IMG/VR virus record: IMGVR_UViG_3300025915_000017
Span: 953-64,952 of that record
Strand: one strand, 5' to 3'
Length of the DNA stretch: 64,000 nucleotides
Origin: a virus
Lineage: Duplodnaviria > Caudoviricetes
Positions 11,292-22,674 of the stretch are shown piece after piece (positions within the stretch are counted from its first letter, which is position 1; each line of letters opens with the position of its first letter). The translations under genes and the position numbers were made by a program. The notes below the pieces were generated by a model, which made no database searches, was not told the DNA's origin, and worked only from the letters and a program-made list of their open reading frames with translations.

Positions 11292-11327
11292 GCAATATTG
11301 ACAAATAGAGAAAGATATCTTACAGTT

Positions 11328-12005
11328 ATGGAAAATACTCCTTCCTCATCTGATGGAAGCGTGACGCCAACACCAGATACGCCCGTGACGGGCACCCCTG
11401 TTTCACAGAGCGTGACGCCTGAGAAGCCAACCACCACTGCAGCGTCTGAGGAGACAGCAGCGCGGATTGCTGAACTTGAGCGCGCATTGAAGAATGCAAC
11501 CGAGGAACGTGACCGGCACCGTAAAAAGCTTTCTGGCTATGAAGATGCAGAACGTAAGGCGCAAGAGGCGCAACTTTCCGAAATAGAAAAGGCGTCCAAA
11601 CGTGCTGCTGAATTTGAAGCCCGATCAGAGCAGTATCGGCAACAACTGGTTACTACCCAGATTAAGCTTGCGGCACAGTCCCAAGGCGTTATCGACCCGG
11701 ATTTAGCGTCATTGGCCATACAAGCTAGCCTGAAATATGGTGATGATGGGATGCCGACAAATATTGATGAAGCGCTTAAAGCATTGATTGAACAAAAGCC
11801 GTTCCTACTCGCGCCCAGACCTGCAGAACCTGCACAGCCTGCCGAACAGCCGCCTGCAAGGGTTGGTGCGCCTGCGGTTCCAGCGATGAATCCAGGGCGT
11901 AGCACGATTGCGGCGCCGGGTAGTACTCAGTCGGGTCGTATTCCGCGCCTGTCTGATCCTGGGGTATTGGTGCCACCGGGCACCGTCTCTCGGTATCAAC
12001 CGTAA
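11328..12005 (+). CDS. Capsid scaffolding protein
   Basis: Pro/Thr-rich N-terminus, central coiled coil, Pro-rich C-terminus, directly upstream of the major capsid gene. Confidence 0.75.
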   Translation: MENTPSSSDGSVTPTPDTPVTGTPVSQSVTPEKPTTTAASEETAARIAELERALKNATEERDRHRKKLSGYEDAERKAQEAQLSEIEKASKRAAEFEARSEQYRQQLVTTQIKLAAQSQGVIDPDLASLAIQASLKYGDDGMPTNIDEALKALIEQKPFLLAPRPAEPAQPAEQPPARVGAPAVPAMNPGRSTIAAPGSTQSGRIPRLSDPGVLVPPGTVSRYQP

Positions 12006-12030
12006 CATACATTTACTACTAAATCTTTTG

Positions 12031-12083
12031 TATCTCCTGGTCAGCACCTGGCACGATCAGATGTTGACCGGGGATAATGGGAG
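12031..12083 (+). promoter_or_regulatory. Structured leader with CCTGGCAnGATCAGA loop (copy 1)
   Basis: Stem cctggtcagca/tgttgaccggg around loop 12047-12061, followed by ATGGGAG RBS. Confidence 0.6.
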
Positions 12084-12092
12084 ACAACATAC

Positions 12093-13109
12093 ATGGCTAT
12101 TGCGTCGGGAACCGTCACGCTTGCCGATTACGCATTAATGAGCAACTCGCCATTAGTGCGGGCCGTGACTTATTCCCTCATCCTCTACTCAAACGTCATT
12201 CAGGACGTGCCGCTTTCCACCAAGAAAAGCTTGATTGTCAACGGCGCACGTTTTGAGGGCAACCTTCCTTCTGTCAACTGGAGCCAGCTCAACGCTGAAG
12301 GCGTCACCACACGTGGCACACCCACGGCTTACCAGGAACAAGCCTACATTATTCGCAACTACATTGATGTGGATAAGTTCCTGGTTGAAGAGGAAAACGC
12401 GATTGTGGACCCACGTGCGGTGCAGTCTGAGGCCTATCTGAAAGCACTCACCTACGATGTCAATTATAAGTTCTTCAAGAACGATCATGTCACTGGTGAT
12501 GTCAATGCCCCAGTAGGTATCCGCTATCGCATCGACAACGGCGGCACCTTTGGCGTGCGTCCAGAAAACAAAATCAACGGCGGTGGTTTGGACCTGTCTC
12601 AAGCAACGCTTGGCACCACGGCAGTTAATGGTAACAAATTGATTGAGTACTTGGACCAACTGCTCTGGTCAGTGGATAGCCCTGAAGGACAGGGTGTGAC
12701 GCTCTACATGAACGAAGTGATGAAGCGCAGGTTCACTTTTGCCCTGCGTAACCTGGGAACCGCAGGCGGTTTCGAGATTACACAAGATATGTTCAACCGT
12801 ACCGTTACGATGTATAAGGGTGCAGTTATCCGCGATCCTGGTTACAAGAGTGATCAGTCCACCCGTATCATCACGACCACCGAAACATCTGATGGCAGCG
12901 CTGACACAAGCTCGACATATACCAGCATCTACGCGGTGAACTACTCCACCGACCACTTCTCTGGCTGGCAGTTTGAACCCCCAAATGTTCAGGATTTGGG
13001 CTTGATCTACAACGGCGCGATATACCGCACTTTAATCGACTGGGCAGTGGGATTTAATAACGCTTCTACCCGTTCTATCGGTCGTCTGTACGGCTTGAAG
13101 CTCAGCTAG
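12093..13109 (+). CDS. Major capsid protein (HK97 fold)
   Basis: 338 aa after scaffold; N-terminal TLADYA, LPSVNWSQLNAEG, IDVDKFL and LDQLL pattern of HK97-fold capsids. Confidence 0.85.
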   Translation: MAIASGTVTLADYALMSNSPLVRAVTYSLILYSNVIQDVPLSTKKSLIVNGARFEGNLPSVNWSQLNAEGVTTRGTPTAYQEQAYIIRNYIDVDKFLVEEENAIVDPRAVQSEAYLKALTYDVNYKFFKNDHVTGDVNAPVGIRYRIDNGGTFGVRPENKINGGGLDLSQATLGTTAVNGNKLIEYLDQLLWSVDSPEGQGVTLYMNEVMKRRFTFALRNLGTAGGFEITQDMFNRTVTMYKGAVIRDPGYKSDQSTRIITTTETSDGSADTSSTYTSIYAVNYSTDHFSGWQFEPPNVQDLGLIYNGAIYRTLIDWAVGFNNASTRSIGRLYGLKLS

Positions 13110-13118
13110 AGGTACGCG

Positions 13119-13280
13119 ATGTCCATAGAATTACAAGAATTGCTTGTGCAGGCGAAGGCAGTTGCAATGAAAGATGCCGAGGTGGGACGGGTGCTCGTGG
13201 CCATCGTGAACCATCTTGCAAAGCTTGAGCATCCACCTGTGCAGGCAAAATCCTCAAAAGGGGGAAATAATGGCGACTGA
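13119..13280 (+). CDS. 53-aa hypothetical protein (not in ORF track)
   Basis: RBS gaggt; fills the gap after the capsid gene. Confidence 0.55.
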   Translation: MSIELQELLVQAKAVAMKDAEVGRVLVAIVNHLAKLEHPPVQAKSSKGGNNGD

Positions 13281-13665
13281 TGCCCTGCTAGCTTTACAGG
13301 CTAGCGTTACTAAAACGGCCACCTTTAATGGCGCCGCTCTCACCCTGGCTGGTGGTACACCCCGTCGTGGATTAGTGGCTCGCGTCATCTATAGCGCGGC
13401 AACAGCGGCCTCTGGCACTGATACCATCACATTTTCCATCGATGTGTCATATGACGCAGGCTCCACCTGGAATAGTGATTTTCTTGCGCCTGCTGTTGGC
13501 CCACTGACAACGACTGCGCTGTCGGGTGAGATCTTCATCCCATTCTCAATTTCGCCAACGAGTGTGGCGAATGGAACGCAGATTCGTCTCACTGCTACTT
13601 TCAGCAGTTCAGCCCACACGGATACCATCACTTATGCCGGGGATATTATGCTTGGGCGTCCATAA
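13270..13665 (+). CDS. Virion structural protein (possible capsid decoration)
   Basis: Beta-rich, T/A/S-rich, position after the capsid gene; RBS aaggggga. Confidence 0.6.
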   Translation: MATDALLALQASVTKTATFNGAALTLAGGTPRRGLVARVIYSAATAASGTDTITFSIDVSYDAGSTWNSDFLAPAVGPLTTTALSGEIFIPFSISPTSVANGTQIRLTATFSSSAHTDTITYAGDIMLGRP

Positions 13666-13687
13666 TCATTGAAAGGAGGCGTACACG

Positions 13688-14296
13688 ATGCCACGCTCAA
13701 CTATGGCGGCGCTTATTGCTCGCGTGCGCCTCCTTATCAATGACTCTGCGGGCGCTTCGCAAGTCTGGACTGATGACAACATCCAGGATGTGCTAGACGC
13801 CAGTCGTGCTGATGTCAAAAACGAGGCGATGATTCCAAGACCAACGTTTAGCGGTTCGACAATCCAGTTTCTGGACTACTACACGAAGCTTGGGGACTGG
13901 GAAGATGATTTAGTCATCAAACAATACTTGATCACTCAAGTTACGCCCACGACATCAGAGCCGATTGCAGGGCACTGGGCATTCAGCACGACAACTTTAC
14001 CGCCTTTGTTCATCTCGGGCAAAACTTATGATATCTACCGGAGTGCAGCGGACCTGCTTGAACGCCAAGCGGCGATGTGGGTGCTACGGTATAACGTCAA
14101 TGTGGATGGGCAGAGCTTGCAACGTGGACAGGTGACAACGGCACTTCAAGCGCTGGCCAGGACCTATCGGATGAAACAACGGGCAGGGGCTATTCATGTC
14201 GTGCGAACTGATATCAGGCAACCTGGACAGTTAGCTGGTGCTGGATTGGGGCCACTGGAGATAGATTATATGGCTGATGGGAACAAGGGAGGCTGA
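13688..14296 (+). CDS. Head-tail adaptor
   Basis: LIARVRLLIND...WTDDNIQDVLD and DIYRSAADLLE motifs; synteny. Confidence 0.7.
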   Translation: MPRSTMAALIARVRLLINDSAGASQVWTDDNIQDVLDASRADVKNEAMIPRPTFSGSTIQFLDYYTKLGDWEDDLVIKQYLITQVTPTTSEPIAGHWAFSTTTLPPLFISGKTYDIYRSAADLLERQAAMWVLRYNVNVDGQSLQRGQVTTALQALARTYRMKQRAGAIHVVRTDIRQPGQLAGAGLGPLEIDYMADGNKGG

Positions 14297-14299
14297 TAG

Positions 14300-14677
14300 A
14301 TGCTCGATGCTGCTGAACTGGCGCAAATCCGATCAGACGCCGCCGCTGCTGCGCTGGACTTATCCTGCACTATCCAGCGGAAGACACTCACCAGATCTGG
14401 TGATGGCCAGGCCACGTCTGTCTGGAACACGGTTGCAACCGTCAACGCTGGTATGACAGAGCCGACGGGCGGCATGCTGCAAAACTATAACTATCTCATC
14501 GAGGATCTGGCAGCCTGGGCCATAAAATTGCCCTACAATACTGACGTTCAGGCTCAGGATCGACTGCTTATCACTGGACAACTTGGCCAGCAAACCCTGG
14601 TGGCACAGGTGGTGCTCGAACCACGTTCGTACGCGGCACTCTTAACTGTGATCGCGGCGGAGGCCAAACAGAAATGA
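14300..14677 (+). CDS. Head closure protein (SPP1 gp16-like)
   Basis: Size, CTIQRK...GDGQ, LPYNTDVQAQDRL; synteny. Confidence 0.7.
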   Translation: MLDAAELAQIRSDAAAAALDLSCTIQRKTLTRSGDGQATSVWNTVATVNAGMTEPTGGMLQNYNYLIEDLAAWAIKLPYNTDVQAQDRLLITGQLGQQTLVAQVVLEPRSYAALLTVIAAEAKQK

Positions 14678-15114
14678 CGGAAATGACGATGGTGTTGGAA
14701 TGGATGTATAGCACGCTTGCAAATGACCCTACCTTGCAAGGCTATGCACCTGGTGGTGTCTGGCGATCTGAGGTGCCGGTTGGGGTTGATAACGACCCAA
14801 CGCCAACGCCATTTGTCATGATTACGTATCAGCCTCGGCAGAGCCGGGATGAAATTGTCTTTGGTGGCGCACGTGCCTACTCGGAGTTGTACTTTGAGGT
14901 GGTCATTGTCGGACACGTTGACGATTGGCAAACGCTGTCCAATGGTGCAACTCGCATTGATCAACTGCTTACCATTGGACGACAAACACCCATCACAGGC
15001 GGCACGATCTCTGCTGGATATCGCGTGCAGCCGATTGAAGAGGACCCGCTCATCGCAGGCGAGATCCAGACGAACACTGGCGGACTCTACAAGTTTATGG
15101 CGAAAGCAGCGTAA
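14674..15114 (+). CDS. Tail terminator / completion protein (DUF3168-like)
   Basis: LANDPTLQ..., PTPFVMI; synteny. Confidence 0.65.
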   Translation: MTEMTMVLEWMYSTLANDPTLQGYAPGGVWRSEVPVGVDNDPTPTPFVMITYQPRQSRDEIVFGGARAYSELYFEVVIVGHVDDWQTLSNGATRIDQLLTIGRQTPITGGTISAGYRVQPIEEDPLIAGEIQTNTGGLYKFMAKAA

Positions 15115-15117
15115 ATC

Positions 15118-15300
15118 ATGACAGAAGAACTGGCAAAGAAGCTCAAAAGCCTGGGTTATCCCGATTTCGAGATGATGCCTGGTGAGGATGCTATTGAAAT
15201 GCTCTACATCCAGGGCAAGCTCATTTGTGGTGTGAATCATGCACTTTCTCTGTCTGATGAGGACCTGAAAGCGCTCATTGACGAGACAGTGGGAGAGTAG
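15118..15300 (+). CDS. Hypothetical protein
   Basis: 60-aa ORF tightly packed in the operon. Confidence 0.55.
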   Translation: MTEELAKKLKSLGYPDFEMMPGEDAIEMLYIQGKLICGVNHALSLSDEDLKALIDETVGE

Positions 15301-15302
15301 CC

Positions 15303-15713
15303 ATGGCTTACACCGTCAGAATTGAGTGGGAAGGGCTTGATAATGCCATCTCCCACTTTGAGAACGTTGGATACTCTGTGTTGGACAAGGTTGAGCAACA
15401 GGGTGTGCAGTTAGCCAGGGATGGTCAAAGTGTCTGGAGGAGTTCAACGCCTGTAAGAACTGGCCGATTGATGGGCGGTGATAGAGGTGTTCCTAGTGGG
15501 TTGGAAATAGAGTTTATCAATAATGTAAAATATTACCCTTTTGTCGATTTGGGGCATCGAACACCATCATACTTCAGGCGTCACGGGCGTATTATCCCAG
15601 CAAAACGCCGATCATTTGTCTCTGGAAAGCAGATCACCGAAAAACTAATCGAGTTCCTTGAGGGAGCCGTTAACGAATATCTCAGAAAAGCTCTGGACGA
15701 GTTTACAGATTAG
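15303..15713 (+). CDS. HK97 gp10-like neck protein
   Basis: TPVRTGRL and YYPFVDLGH motifs. Confidence 0.75.
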   Translation: MAYTVRIEWEGLDNAISHFENVGYSVLDKVEQQGVQLARDGQSVWRSSTPVRTGRLMGGDRGVPSGLEIEFINNVKYYPFVDLGHRTPSYFRRHGRIIPAKRRSFVSGKQITEKLIEFLEGAVNEYLRKALDEFTD

Positions 15714-15755
15714 TAGATTAGGGAATTAGTACATTACTTGTTTGTTCATCTTATA

Positions 15756-15811
15756 CCTCGTGCTCAGTGCCTGGCAAGATCAGACATTGCATTGTGCAGG
15801 GGGTGATGGGA
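15756..15811 (+). promoter_or_regulatory. Structured leader with CCTGGCAnGATCAGA loop (copy 2)
   Basis: Loop 15770-15784 closed by cagtg/cattg, followed by GGGGGTGATGGGAG. Confidence 0.6.
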
Positions 15812-15818
15812 GTAGAAA

Positions 15819-16202
15819 ATGGCAGCTTTAGCAGGAATCGGCGCCTCATGCACCGAAGCTTCTACCGCCTTCACTGATGCGAGCAAATGGACGCTCTCAC
15901 TGAAGGGCGCTGTGAAGGATGTCACCCCTTTTGGTGCGAGCGGAAACTGGACAGTGAATCTGGCCACGCTCAAGAGTTGGAGCGGGAAGATAACCGCCTT
16001 CGTGGATACGTCGGATGCGGCACAAACCAACCTCTTCGCACTCATTGGTAGCACTGTATCGATGACATTTACCATCAGCAGCACACCTCATGCCTTCACT
16101 GGCTCGGCTATTCTCACCGGCATTGACCCGTCAGTTGACGTACAAAATGCACAAACGGTAGATTTTAGCTTTACAGGCACAGGGGCCATTACGTATAGCT
16201 AG
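15819..16202 (+). CDS. Tail tube protein
   Basis: 127 aa beta-rich; WTLSL...DVTPFGASGNW...LKSWSG and FSFTGTG tail-tube pattern. Confidence 0.8.
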   Translation: MAALAGIGASCTEASTAFTDASKWTLSLKGAVKDVTPFGASGNWTVNLATLKSWSGKITAFVDTSDAAQTNLFALIGSTVSMTFTISSTPHAFTGSAILTGIDPSVDVQNAQTVDFSFTGTGAITYS

Positions 16203-16214
16203 CGGAGGCAAACC

Positions 16215-16919
16215 ATGTCAGCTCTCGCAGGTATCAGTGGTGATGTATGGCTTTCCACGTCACCATCAACCGCTCTTGGGTCGCCGGAGTCCTGCACCGA
16301 TTCAGGCGACCATATCCACTACTTTACGAATACCCACCAATCGTGGGACCAGGTGCAAACGTTTACCGTGCAATGCAGCCCAAATGGCTCTACTGGCTGG
16401 GCCACCGTGACCGATTACGTCATGAACTGGCCTGTGGGCGAAATTGTCTTTAATTCGGCCCGTGTTCCTGGCACGAATAACTTTGTCAGGATTAATGCAG
16501 GCAGCTACTTCACGATGACTGCTCTCGATGGGGCGCACTCATGGAAAGCACAGGCAAAGGCGGCGACCAAGGATTGCACCACGTTCCAGGCATCAGGCGG
16601 CTGGGCGACATACACCGCGACCATCAAGTCATGGACCTTCACGGTGGAGTGCTTCCGCGACGATGCCAGGATCTTGAACGAGATGATTTCCCCAGGGGCC
16701 GTGGGTAACATCAACATTTCAAACGGGATTGTGCTTTGCCAGCTTTGGTGGGATGAGTCGAACGGCAAGCGCTTTCAGTTCTACGCGCTGCCCACTGGCG
16801 TCACGCAGACAGATGACGCTCATGACGTGGAAAAACAAAGCGTGACGTTCAGCGCAACCGGCCCGGTGTATGAGGTGACAAGCAATACATTCAGCACAAC
16901 CACAGTGGTAAGAATGTAG
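16215..16919 (+). CDS. Second tail-tube paralog with about 100-aa insertion
   Basis: MSALAGISG start and KDCTTFQASGGWATYTATIKSWT match the previous gene. Confidence 0.7.
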   Translation: MSALAGISGDVWLSTSPSTALGSPESCTDSGDHIHYFTNTHQSWDQVQTFTVQCSPNGSTGWATVTDYVMNWPVGEIVFNSARVPGTNNFVRINAGSYFTMTALDGAHSWKAQAKAATKDCTTFQASGGWATYTATIKSWTFTVECFRDDARILNEMISPGAVGNINISNGIVLCQLWWDESNGKRFQFYALPTGVTQTDDAHDVEKQSVTFSATGPVYEVTSNTFSTTTVVRM

Positions 16920-21117: not shown

Positions 21118-22674
21118 ATGACATTTATTAGTCTTGTCCCATCGATATTTACGAATGTGAAGCAGTACAACGTAAAAGGGGATGGTGTTACCGATGATAC
21201 CTCTACTATCGCTTCGGCCCTTTCCGCGATTAGTAGCACTGGTGGTGTGCTTTTCTTCCCACCTGGCACGTACCTCACTGGCAATCAAACGCTCCTGCCG
21301 AATGTGCATATCGTTGGCGCGGGTCTGGGCAATACCACGATCAAATTAAAAAATGGAGCGAACACTGATTTATTTTCCGCGCAGACAGGGAGTATCAATT
21401 TGTCAGCGGCGGCCAACGCTGGCAGTGCTGGCACACTACTCAGTTTCTCCGTCCGTGACTTGACACTTGATGGCAACAAAGCCAATCAGTCGAGCGGCAC
21501 ATCATACCCCCTCAGATTCTACGGTTACAACTTCATTCTGAGAGACTTGCAAATCATGAACGGCTACACAGGTGGCATTTTGATCGATTGGAATGGGGGG
21601 AGTGCGCTTTCCTCGCCGTCTGACCAGATGGAAAGTCTGATAGCCAACTGCAAGATCCACGATAACAACGGGATTGGCCTGCAAATGGGTGGGCCACACG
21701 ATAGCCGCATACAAAATGTGTTGAGCTTCTTGAATGGAAGCCATAACATCCATCTGGCCCCCAATGCGACGGGAACACTGGTGCTCAACAGCCATGGCTG
21801 GGGCAATCCCAATACGACTGGTGTGTGCTGCTGGATTATCGAAGCAACAGGGTGTCAGTTCAGTAACTGCGTGGCCGAAGGTTCCTATCATACAGATGTG
21901 GTTATTCTTGCCAACAACACCTCGTGGGCGGGCGGCTATGTCTATGGAGCAAGCGGTGGTGCCTCTGAAATCGGCTTTCAACTGGGACAAAATAGTGGGC
22001 AAACCCCCTATCCAGGCCAGATTTTACAATCGGCAGGTGTAACTACCTCTGTTAGTGTTGGTGGGTGTGTCATCCAAACGATGATTAATAGTTGCCCTGG
22101 TGGAGCACTCAATTGTGTCAATGAAGGCTCTAACTTCGTTGCTGCGAACATCTGGCAATCATCGGGGTCTGCTGTGATTGGGACGCCAAACACGAGTGAT
22201 GTGTATAGCTTGCAGGTGGGAGGCGCAACGGCTGATGGCACACTTGGAAAAGGTGGAGGGATACAGGTTGTTACTGGCGCTACAACTGGCTTTGTCGTCC
22301 TTGATACCAGCGGCAATACCGTATTGCAAGCCTCTGGGTTTGCTCCTGAAGGGATTATTGTTGGCGGAAACATTTCCACAAAACAATCATCAAGCGCTGC
22401 GGCTATTGCCACCAATGGAACCGTTACCACAGCAGGGATCGGTGTGGCCCGCGTAGCTCCTACCGGCAATGTGACCGGGATTATCTTGCAAGCGGGAACC
22501 ATCGCAGGGCAGCAAATTGTCGTGCTCAACGAAAGCTCATTCACATTAACGCTCAATACCACTCCTGCCACCTCCAATGTTGCTGATAGTGCAACAGAGC
22601 CAGTTATAGCCGCTCTGACAGCCAGAAAGTATTATTGGGACAGTTCTACCTCAAGATGGTATAGGAGCGCATAA
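21118..22674 (+). CDS. Pectate-lyase-like beta-helix tail spike / depolymerase
   Basis: NVKQYNVKGDGVTDDT, GGVLFFPPGTY and IVGAGLGNTTIKL (Pectate_lyase_3-type N-terminus). Confidence 0.85.
   Translation: MTFISLVPSIFTNVKQYNVKGDGVTDDTSTIASALSAISSTGGVLFFPPGTYLTGNQTLLPNVHIVGAGLGNTTIKLKNGANTDLFSAQTGSINLSAAANAGSAGTLLSFSVRDLTLDGNKANQSSGTSYPLRFYGYNFILRDLQIMNGYTGGILIDWNGGSALSSPSDQMESLIANCKIHDNNGIGLQMGGPHDSRIQNVLSFLNGSHNIHLAPNATGTLVLNSHGWGNPNTTGVCCWIIEATGCQFSNCVAEGSYHTDVVILANNTSWAGGYVYGASGGASEIGFQLGQNSGQTPYPGQILQSAGVTTSVSVGGCVIQTMINSCPGGALNCVNEGSNFVAANIWQSSGSAVIGTPNTSDVYSLQVGGATADGTLGKGGGIQVVTGATTGFVVLDTSGNTVLQASGFAPEGIIVGGNISTKQSSSAAAIATNGTVTTAGIGVARVAPTGNVTGIILQAGTIAGQQIVVLNESSFTLTLNTTPATSNVADSATEPVIAALTARKYYWDSSTSRWYRSA

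Follow-up and report, generated by a model that had tools for sequence, protein, structure and literature searches.

The window analysed here, a 64,000-nt stretch of a Caudoviricetes genome (positions 953 to 64,952 of the IMG/VR record IMGVR_UViG_3300025915_000017), carries on its + strand a tightly packed head-tail module whose only sizeable gaps each hold a hairpin leader (Table 1). The stop codon of the scaffolding gene lies 20 nt 5' of the first pair of the hairpin model (12026), both elements stop 6-9 nt short of the start codons at 12093 and 15819, and A+U makes up 64% of the 30 nt preceding the hairpin, compared with 50% genome-wide. A scan found neither a promoter-like site on the coding strand nor a terminator-like site at the element, which, together with the packing of the genes, suggests that it lies inside a polycistronic operon.

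Table 1. Features of the head-tail module around the two leader hairpins
Feature	Position	Strand	Basis
Head scaffolding gene	11298..12005	+	phrog_194
Leader hairpin copy 1, between scaffold and capsid genes	12024..12084	+	model R1 match 12022-12095
Apex of copy 1 (C.A mismatch, 4-bp stem, 5-nt loop)	12047..12061	+	fold
Shine-Dalgarno GGGAG of capsid gene; pairs with CUUUU tract 12025-12029 in basal helix	12079..12083	+	fold
Major capsid (head) protein gene	12093..13109	+	phrog_212, E 7e-34
Leader hairpin copy 2, ahead of tail-tube gene	15749..15811	+	R1 match 15745-15821
Apex of copy 2	15770..15784	+	sequence
Shine-Dalgarno GGGAG of tail-tube gene, within basal helix	15808..15812	+	sequence and fold
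Major tail (tube) protein gene, 127 aa	15819..16202	+	phrog_1407, E 1.7e-9

The original prediction had singled out two 15-mers as the loops of hairpins with differing stems, followed by a shared 3' flank. Both 15-mers are of one type, lie where they were placed and recur nowhere else in the 64,952-nt virus record (by simple arithmetic, chance would give about 0.005 further 15-mers with at most one mismatch in 128 kb); they are not open loops, as each forms a 4-bp apical stem and a 5-nt loop over a C.A mismatch. The stems around them do differ in sequence, with compensatory changes, and the flank ahead of the start codons, GGRRTRATRGGAG, occurs exactly twice against 0.03 expected. Copy 1 folds with an MFE of -29.4 kcal/mol (z -4.47), scores 72.7 bits with R1 and ranks in the top 0.4% of the 70-nt windows of the genome; the values for copy 2 are -27 kcal/mol (z -2.48) and 68 bits.

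A conserved hairpin at the RNA level

Both stretches belong to a single conserved RNA element, a hairpin that acts in cis. Briefly, the element is one long, near-continuous hairpin of ~60 nt and about 26 layers (of which about 23 are standard pairs and three are conserved but non-canonical), which reaches down through the Shine-Dalgarno (SD) sequence of the capsid or tail-tube gene, held at the base of its 3' arm, and this single extended hairpin is the fold of every copy. RNAalifold gives 22 pairs, with compensatory changes in 11. Stem covariation in related phages, which had been put forward as a check, was assessed over 37 distinct copies: 95.7% of cells pair, compared with 49-58% when the partners are slid, double changes occur in 14 of the 22 pairs, and covariation scores 0.443 where the slid controls reach 0.08-0.13, an outcome unchanged in a MAFFT-only alignment. 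The element is a previously uncatalogued structured RNA family, well supported by covariation and, as first supposed, absent from Rfam: at the gathering threshold of Rfam 15 no family matches the leaders, the only passing match being a tRNA elsewhere in the window, and permissive scans of both leaders returned only noise (E about 5-10).

Conservation is distributed unevenly along the hairpin. Sequence is kept in the lower helix and in the flank with the SD, pairing by covariation in the upper helix. Insertions of ~45 nt are tolerated at the tip, so that the 15-nt loop once taken for the conserved core is in fact the most variable part among relatives. The apex type of copy 1 is found again in relatives L025, L028, L062, L070 and L074; a genome-specific apex as specificity determinant was rejected, as copies are not grouped by genome and most relatives' apices differ. 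Conservation of the lower helix exceeds the needs of pairing, taking in a G.G mismatch, a C.A mismatch, a bulged A and fixed U.G/G.U wobbles, with U kept opposite G where a stronger-pairing C is possible.

The conserved G.U wobbles render the fold strongly strand-specific: the sense strand reaches -29.3 kcal/mol against -16.5 for the antisense and is the better folder in 34 of 35 copies, and this difference of 12.8 kcal/mol identifies an RNA element rather than a DNA site. Every model match, moreover, lies on the coding strand and ends at a start codon. A DNA-level site, either a late promoter (e.g. the sigma-54-like TGGCAC) or a dimeric late-activator site on the inverted repeat, had also been entertained, and the apex does contain TGGCAC or TGGCAA together with GATC, within an inverted repeat upstream of late genes. 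We regard such a site as highly improbable, since the apex is not conserved in relatives, the wobbles leave an imperfect DNA repeat, the element has no promoter-like site on the coding strand, and no conserved sequence was found upstream of it in relatives. Sigma-54 promoters are spaced as TGGCAC, 5 nt, TTGC (GG to GC 10 nt apart); copy 1 lacks TTGC and the TTGC of copy 2 is 4 nt too distant, putting the -12 element off this spacing. A sigma-70 promoter was rejected on spacing and scan results. Intrinsic terminators consist of a G+C-rich hairpin and then a U tract; at these loci a spacer and then the start codon come after the hairpin, and no terminator appears there in the scan.

Distribution among relatives and the likely host

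About 37 distinct copies of the element, a new structured RNA family, occur in related uncultured soil phages whose likely hosts, the Chloroflexota, are a poorly studied phylum. Genomes carry one to three copies, all within the structural module, where they precede two capsid families without sequence similarity to each other and, on the tail side, three tail-protein types and, in relatives, the tape-measure gene. The expectation that the motif would recur at homologous loci is borne out for the element, with a different apex in most relatives, and the restriction to exactly two mRNAs was too narrow, because some relatives bear a third copy ahead of the tape-measure gene; the proposed link to high-copy virion genes is supported, even though the tape-measure product is a low-copy protein. 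Presence at capsid genes and at tail genes is correlated across genomes. Close relatives use other leaders at the capsid gene, and a second leader type in relatives, CTCCTGG...CCAGGAG, occurs at capsid genes only, with no occurrence at tail genes. Cultured phages gave no DNA match to the element, and the best capsid identity among them is 28%.

One and the same leader is thus attached to capsid and tail genes of unrelated families, in genomes with little else in common (five head genes are all that element-positive genomes share), which suggests a portable expression cassette. Such a distribution would also be expected of a recombination linker or mobile regulatory cassette, in which 60 nt provide homology for head and tail module swaps and any effect on expression is secondary; promoter-stem-loop cassettes of T4-type phages have reportedly been proposed to work in this way. 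The differing leader types among close capsid relatives fit this idea too. Homology, however, needs no RNA pairing, yet pairing is here maintained by compensatory changes in a strand-specific manner, and the distance from the end of the element to the start codon is always fixed, leaving a primarily recombinational role improbable.

The host is likely a Chloroflexota lineage, an assignment drawn from two MAGs. Two related Chloroflexota MAGs encode RNase III, RNase J and RNase Y (J and Y above the curated cut-off), and RNase E/G was not found in them. A motif borrowed from the host was rejected, being absent from 150 further genomes sampled from the host class (32 candidates scored per genome). 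On the phage side, no encoded RNase III or dsRBD was found, and a tblastn comparison (E of 1e-4 or better) turned up no phage gene whose presence follows that of the element, in a test of low power because only two complete genomes are element-negative; the genes common to all element-positive genomes are head-core genes, also present in element-negative relatives. Copies do not cluster by genome and therefore show no sign of within-genome co-evolution, which, taken with the lack of a co-occurring phage gene, points to action by a host factor or to an intrinsic mode of action.

Processing, masking and recognition as candidate roles

The leader most likely controls the survival and translation of the capsid and tail mRNAs. 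The reading we favour, though tentatively, is that of an intercistronic processing and stabilising hairpin; of the earlier suggestion of a processing or stability RNA, the RNA-level cis element is established, and the processing role is the best-fitting interpretation. The late transcript would be one long polycistronic mRNA, in which the hairpin takes up the space ahead of the capsid and tail-tube genes. A host endonuclease would cut this mRNA at the element: RNase Y could act on the A+U-rich linker directly 5' of the hairpin, or RNase III on the long helix itself. The hairpin, along with a ribosome on the adjacent strong SD, would then shield the downstream capsid or tail mRNA from the 5'-to-3' exonuclease RNase J, such that these cistrons would outlast and out-express their neighbours, while the weak, wobble-rich basal helix would mask the SD only mildly (about 5 kcal/mol). 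A stable stem-loop does occupy the intercistronic gap immediately 5' of the cistron that would be favoured. The element offers a testable handle on the old question of how a single virion operon yields hundreds of capsid and tube subunits and few copies of their neighbours.

Some observations count against a stabiliser: close relatives have those other capsid leaders, the capsid gene has no structured 3' element behind it that could act as a 3' stabiliser (the fold there is not significant), and in some relatives the element precedes the gene of the low-copy tape-measure protein.

Unmasking the SD costs 4.5 kcal/mol in copy 1 and a median of 5.2 kcal/mol across copies (range 1.5-7.9). Strong SD sequestration as the key feature was rejected because this cost is ordinary for the genome, the barriers of the two copies ranking 28 and 44 among 73 genes (median 3.8). 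The same values bear on self-contained translational tuning, in which the hairpin would insulate the ribosome-binding site against a changing upstream context and set a fixed, modest unmasking barrier with no nuclease or protein partner; temperature, or ribosomes reaching the stop of the preceding gene, might open it. The unmasking cost indeed stays narrow despite total hairpin stabilities of -14 to -58 kcal/mol, the retained U opposite G fits this reading too, and the hairpin lies a median of 13 nt from the upstream stop, placing about half of the copies within reach of a terminating ribosome. This distance spans 1-35 nt, however, so translational coupling is not general, and a helix of about 26 conserved layers far exceeds what insulation needs; with a barrier ordinary for the genome, we consider tuning of this kind unlikely.

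The conserved G.G, C.A, bulged A and fixed wobbles hint at specific recognition, since a plain stabiliser needs neither sequence conservation in the lower helix nor fixed irregularities. They are the main attraction of a translational operator, where a trans-acting protein from the host or the head module (e.g. free scaffold or capsid subunits) would bind the lower helix and open or lock the SD, tying virion-subunit synthesis to the state of assembly. The SD belongs to the helix, the targets (capsid, tube and tape measure) are all parts of polymerising head and tail assemblies, and the correlation between capsid-gene and tail-gene occurrence would follow. Set against this are the freely variable apex, the lack of genome clustering or signs of co-evolution, and the fact that no phage gene sets the element-positive genomes apart, their shared head-core genes being found in element-negative relatives as well; an operator is therefore a somewhat unlikely candidate. 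Its fuller form, a dedicated feedback circuit in which a conserved factor reads the mismatch-bearing lower helix and gates translation or processing, we consider unlikely. If true, it would couple capsid, tail-tube and tape-measure synthesis to the availability of assembly initiators, through a portable 'assembly-checkpoint' RNA cassette common to otherwise unrelated mosaic Chloroflexota phages.

Parallels with known leaders and processing sites

Phage RNase III processing sites are hairpins of at least two helical turns, broken by minor internal irregularities and found between early or late cistrons (the T7 R sites, SP82); the SP82 site has a purine-rich, SD-like tract, a polypurine 5' stabiliser, just 3' of the cut, and the T7 R sites are not known to include the SD of the next gene. 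The leader likewise offers about two turns of dsRNA (20 bp or more) with few interruptions, a candidate substrate for RNase III, whose paired cuts leave a 2-nt 3' overhang. It has no homology to the T7 or SP82 sites and, unlike those of T7, contains the SD of the next gene. In fourU-type RNA thermometers, the SD is masked at the hairpin base by a weak helix that melts in the physiological range, in which a run rich in U forms A-U and G.U pairs with it; the base of the leader shares this pairing arrangement; it differs in serving phage virion genes, in the long stable helix above, in its ordinary barrier of ~5 kcal/mol and in matching no Rfam thermometer.

The SAS/ESAS of Cluster K mycobacteriophages, in which a conserved motif with GATAGGAG lies a few nt before start codons, sometimes behind an inverted repeat, is tied to unrelated gene families (PMC3203893, PMC12699233), and in this respect resembles the leader. 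SAS/ESAS occurs in 11-19 copies per genome, at non-structural genes only, with inverted repeats reported without support for RNA pairing (PMC3203893), whereas the leader has one to three copies, all before structural genes, and strong RNA covariation. Membership was rejected: the 13-nt consensus GGGATAGGAGCCC, allowing at most 2 mismatches and 3-7 nt ahead of a start codon, is absent at both copies, with a single chance-level match at 22658.

A literature search on processing upstream of phage capsid genes found nothing direct, and the nearest precedents are bacterial. In B. subtilis, cleavage of cggR-gapA mRNA by RNase Y yields a product that owes its stability against RNase J1 to a 5'-terminal hairpin (PMC11780869), and in the cip-cel operon subunit stoichiometry is set by intergenic stem-loops (PMC10311766). 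These operons and the phage share the placement of a stable stem-loop between two cistrons, right in front of the one required in larger amounts than the other genes of the operon; the likely host lineage has RNases Y and J, as does B. subtilis, along with RNase III, and, as in cip-cel, the products are subunits of a multi-protein assembly. The phage helix is unrelated to either in sequence and much longer; its own sequence is conserved from genome to genome, it takes in the SD, and it is reused as a cassette before unrelated genes, with cleavage so far putative. Leaders of this kind may find use in the design of synthetic operons for bacteria equipped with RNases Y and J.

Two leader hairpins in the head-tail module

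Both 15-nt sequences that the original prediction had placed in hairpin loops lie where it had put them, and they have no further copies in the 64,952-nt IMG/VR record (n=2), which the window covers almost wholly; the motif common to their 3' flanks likewise has exactly two occurrences, where 0.03 would be expected. As proposed, the hairpins stand ahead of the capsid and tail-tube genes; copy 1 is preceded by the scaffold gene. Instead of a 15-nt loop on a short stem, folding gives a long, extended hairpin. The 15-mer forms its tip (the apex), in which a 5-nt loop caps a 4-bp stem above a C.A mismatch. At its base the 3' arm consists of the Shine-Dalgarno (SD) sequence GGGAG, whose partner, by A-U and G.U pairing, is a CUUUU tract. 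The head-tail module is tightly packed and, if a small ORF at 13119-13280 is real, has no sizeable gap apart from the two that hold the element; no coding-strand promoter-like site and no terminator-like site was found there.

Of two adjoining genes with matches to phrog_1407 (major tail protein), only the first has the hairpin ahead of it. In the tail-gene copy, the tandem CATTG CATTG duplication in the 3' arm allows two pairing registers with the 5' arm, the covariance model taking one unit as an insertion. Elsewhere in the module, one of the genome's most stable local folds (~-32 kcal/mol on either strand) sits where genes 13270-13665 and 13688-14296 meet.

Positions of the leader hairpins and associated features (window coordinates unless a related viral locus, L, or phage genome, G, is named)
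Feature	Position	Family or score	Context
Hairpin, copy 1	12024-12084	-29.4 kcal/mol, z -4.5	before capsid gene
Hairpin, copy 2	15749-15811	-27 kcal/mol, z -2.5	before tail-tube gene
Apex 15-mers	12047-12061, 15770-15784		copies 1 and 2
Major head protein gene	12093-13109	phrog_212	after copy 1
Major tail protein gene	15819-16202	phrog_1407 (127 aa)	after copy 2
Second tail protein gene	16215-16919	phrog_1407 (234 aa)	no hairpin before it
CATTG duplication	15785-15794		copy 2, 3' arm
TACATT	12008-12013, 15730-15735		12-19 nt upstream of hairpin
Stable local fold	13671-13740		gene junction
Degenerate third copy	G004:C1:44615-44682 (= L059:1501-1568, minus strand)	41 bits	~30 nt before an ORF
ATC at start position	L074:790-792, L014:6532-6534
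Three-part capsid leader	L027:5920-6003, L029:2210-2288, L031:4980-5056, L033:5925-6003, L035:5930-6003		also L004, L023, L030

Covariation and conservation of the hairpin

A search with the capsid protein yielded 46 viral loci (46-84% identity), many of which keep the flanks of the hairpin but differ in the supposed loop. A MAFFT alignment of 15 sequences, from which a covariance model (R1) was built, contained 22 consensus pairs; compensatory changes occur in 11 of them. Stem covariation, the check suggested with the original prediction, was found across 37 distinct copies: double changes affect 14 of the 22 pairs, the covariation score is 0.443 (0.08-0.13 for slid partners) and paired cells amount to 95.7%, against 49-58% with slid partners; an alignment not fitted to the model agrees with this. 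Copies detected by R1 lie on the coding strand only and every one ends at a start codon, real copies scoring ~75 bits and mirror-strand matches 14-17 bits. In 34 of 35 copies the sense strand folds more stably than the antisense (mean -29.3 versus -16.5 kcal/mol); the element is therefore an RNA structure formed by the mRNA, not a symmetric DNA site, which disfavours the suggested DNA site for a late activator. Among relatives, no conserved sequence was found upstream of the hairpin. The element is a real, selected RNA element, previously uncatalogued; as anticipated, it has no match in Rfam, nor was one found in cultured phages.

Conservation differs along the helix. The upper half covaries freely, whereas the lower half is conserved in sequence with a few compensatory swaps; wobble pairs remain U.G or G.U and seldom turn into C-G, and a G.G mismatch, the C.A mismatch below the apex and a bulged A are kept across copies. 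The apex comes in a few types and can accommodate insertions of ~45 nt. Since the window's type is also seen in several further phages, ahead of capsid and tail genes alike, the shared apex type of the two window copies reflects a family subtype; neither copy has the other as its nearest relative, and the copies form no clusters by genome or gene context.

Gene contexts and probable hosts

The element precedes capsid genes of two families, the window type and phrog_267, between which no similarity was detected. On the tail side it precedes the 127-aa type of tail-tube gene, a gene in the major-tail position whose product has 341-432 aa and, at the loci L020 and L014, the gene for the tape measure. 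There are one to three copies per complete genome. In G004, a complete relative, the degenerate copy follows the tail copy at a distance of ~8.5 kb and stands before a GTG-started 177-aa ORF. At two loci ATC aligns with the start codon and the frame runs on as in ATG-started relatives, which points to non-canonical initiation at AUC or else to an error in the sequence. Mosaicism is extreme across the window, G001-G005 and G158-G162; nine phages with capsids 64-84% identical to the window's have in common with it only portal, scaffold, capsid and two connector genes (tblastn).

A metagenome scan recovered the element in only seven stretches. One capsid relative lies in a 557-kb contig of a Chloroflexia metagenome-assembled genome (MAG), and another, with two element copies, in a Ktedonobacterales MAG; as the element was not found in 150 other sampled genomes of the probable host class, at 32 candidates scored per genome, it is a feature of the phages rather than of the host. 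Genes for RNases III, J and Y are present in both MAGs, RNase E/G being detected in neither, and no phage-encoded RNase III or dsRNA-binding domain was found.

Candidate functions of the leader

Strong translational repression by SD masking is unlikely, because the cost of freeing the SD (median 5.2 kcal/mol, regardless of the hairpin's total stability) is ordinary among genes of the window genome. Nor can coupling to the upstream gene be general, given that the upstream stop codon lies 1-35 nt (median 13) from the hairpin. The element is of a broadly known kind, the intercistronic leader hairpin, and as its mechanism we infer, as the best fit, that it would act in mRNA processing and stabilisation. 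Experimentally studied systems work in this way: in Bacillus subtilis cggR-gapA, a 5'-end hairpin shields the RNase Y product from RNase J1 (PMC11780869), and stem-loops between genes of the cip-cel operon determine the stoichiometry of cellulosome subunits (PMC10311766). The helix is long enough for the element to be a putative RNase III substrate, the 30 nt upstream of the hairpin are 64% A+U (50% for the genome), and no significant structure was found 3' of the capsid gene. Simple stabilisation leaves unexplained both the conserved sequence of the lower helix and its fixed mismatches, which keep alive a model in which the element is a protein operator; comparison with nine related genomes revealed no window gene tracking its presence.

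The TACATT in both window leaders resembles UACAUA, the motif reported for B. subtilis EndoA (PMC11780869), and, not being conserved in relatives, may be a chance occurrence. The SAS/ESAS repeats of Cluster K mycobacteriophages are superficially similar to the element, which failed every defining test for membership.

Relatives lacking the element carry a different capsid leader in three parts, namely a CCAGGAG directly after the scaffold stop codon, a CTCCTGG and then another CCAGGAG, which serves as the capsid SD. As pairing of the CTCCTGG with either CCAGGAG would be possible, this leader may be an alternative-pairing switch tying scaffold termination to capsid initiation.
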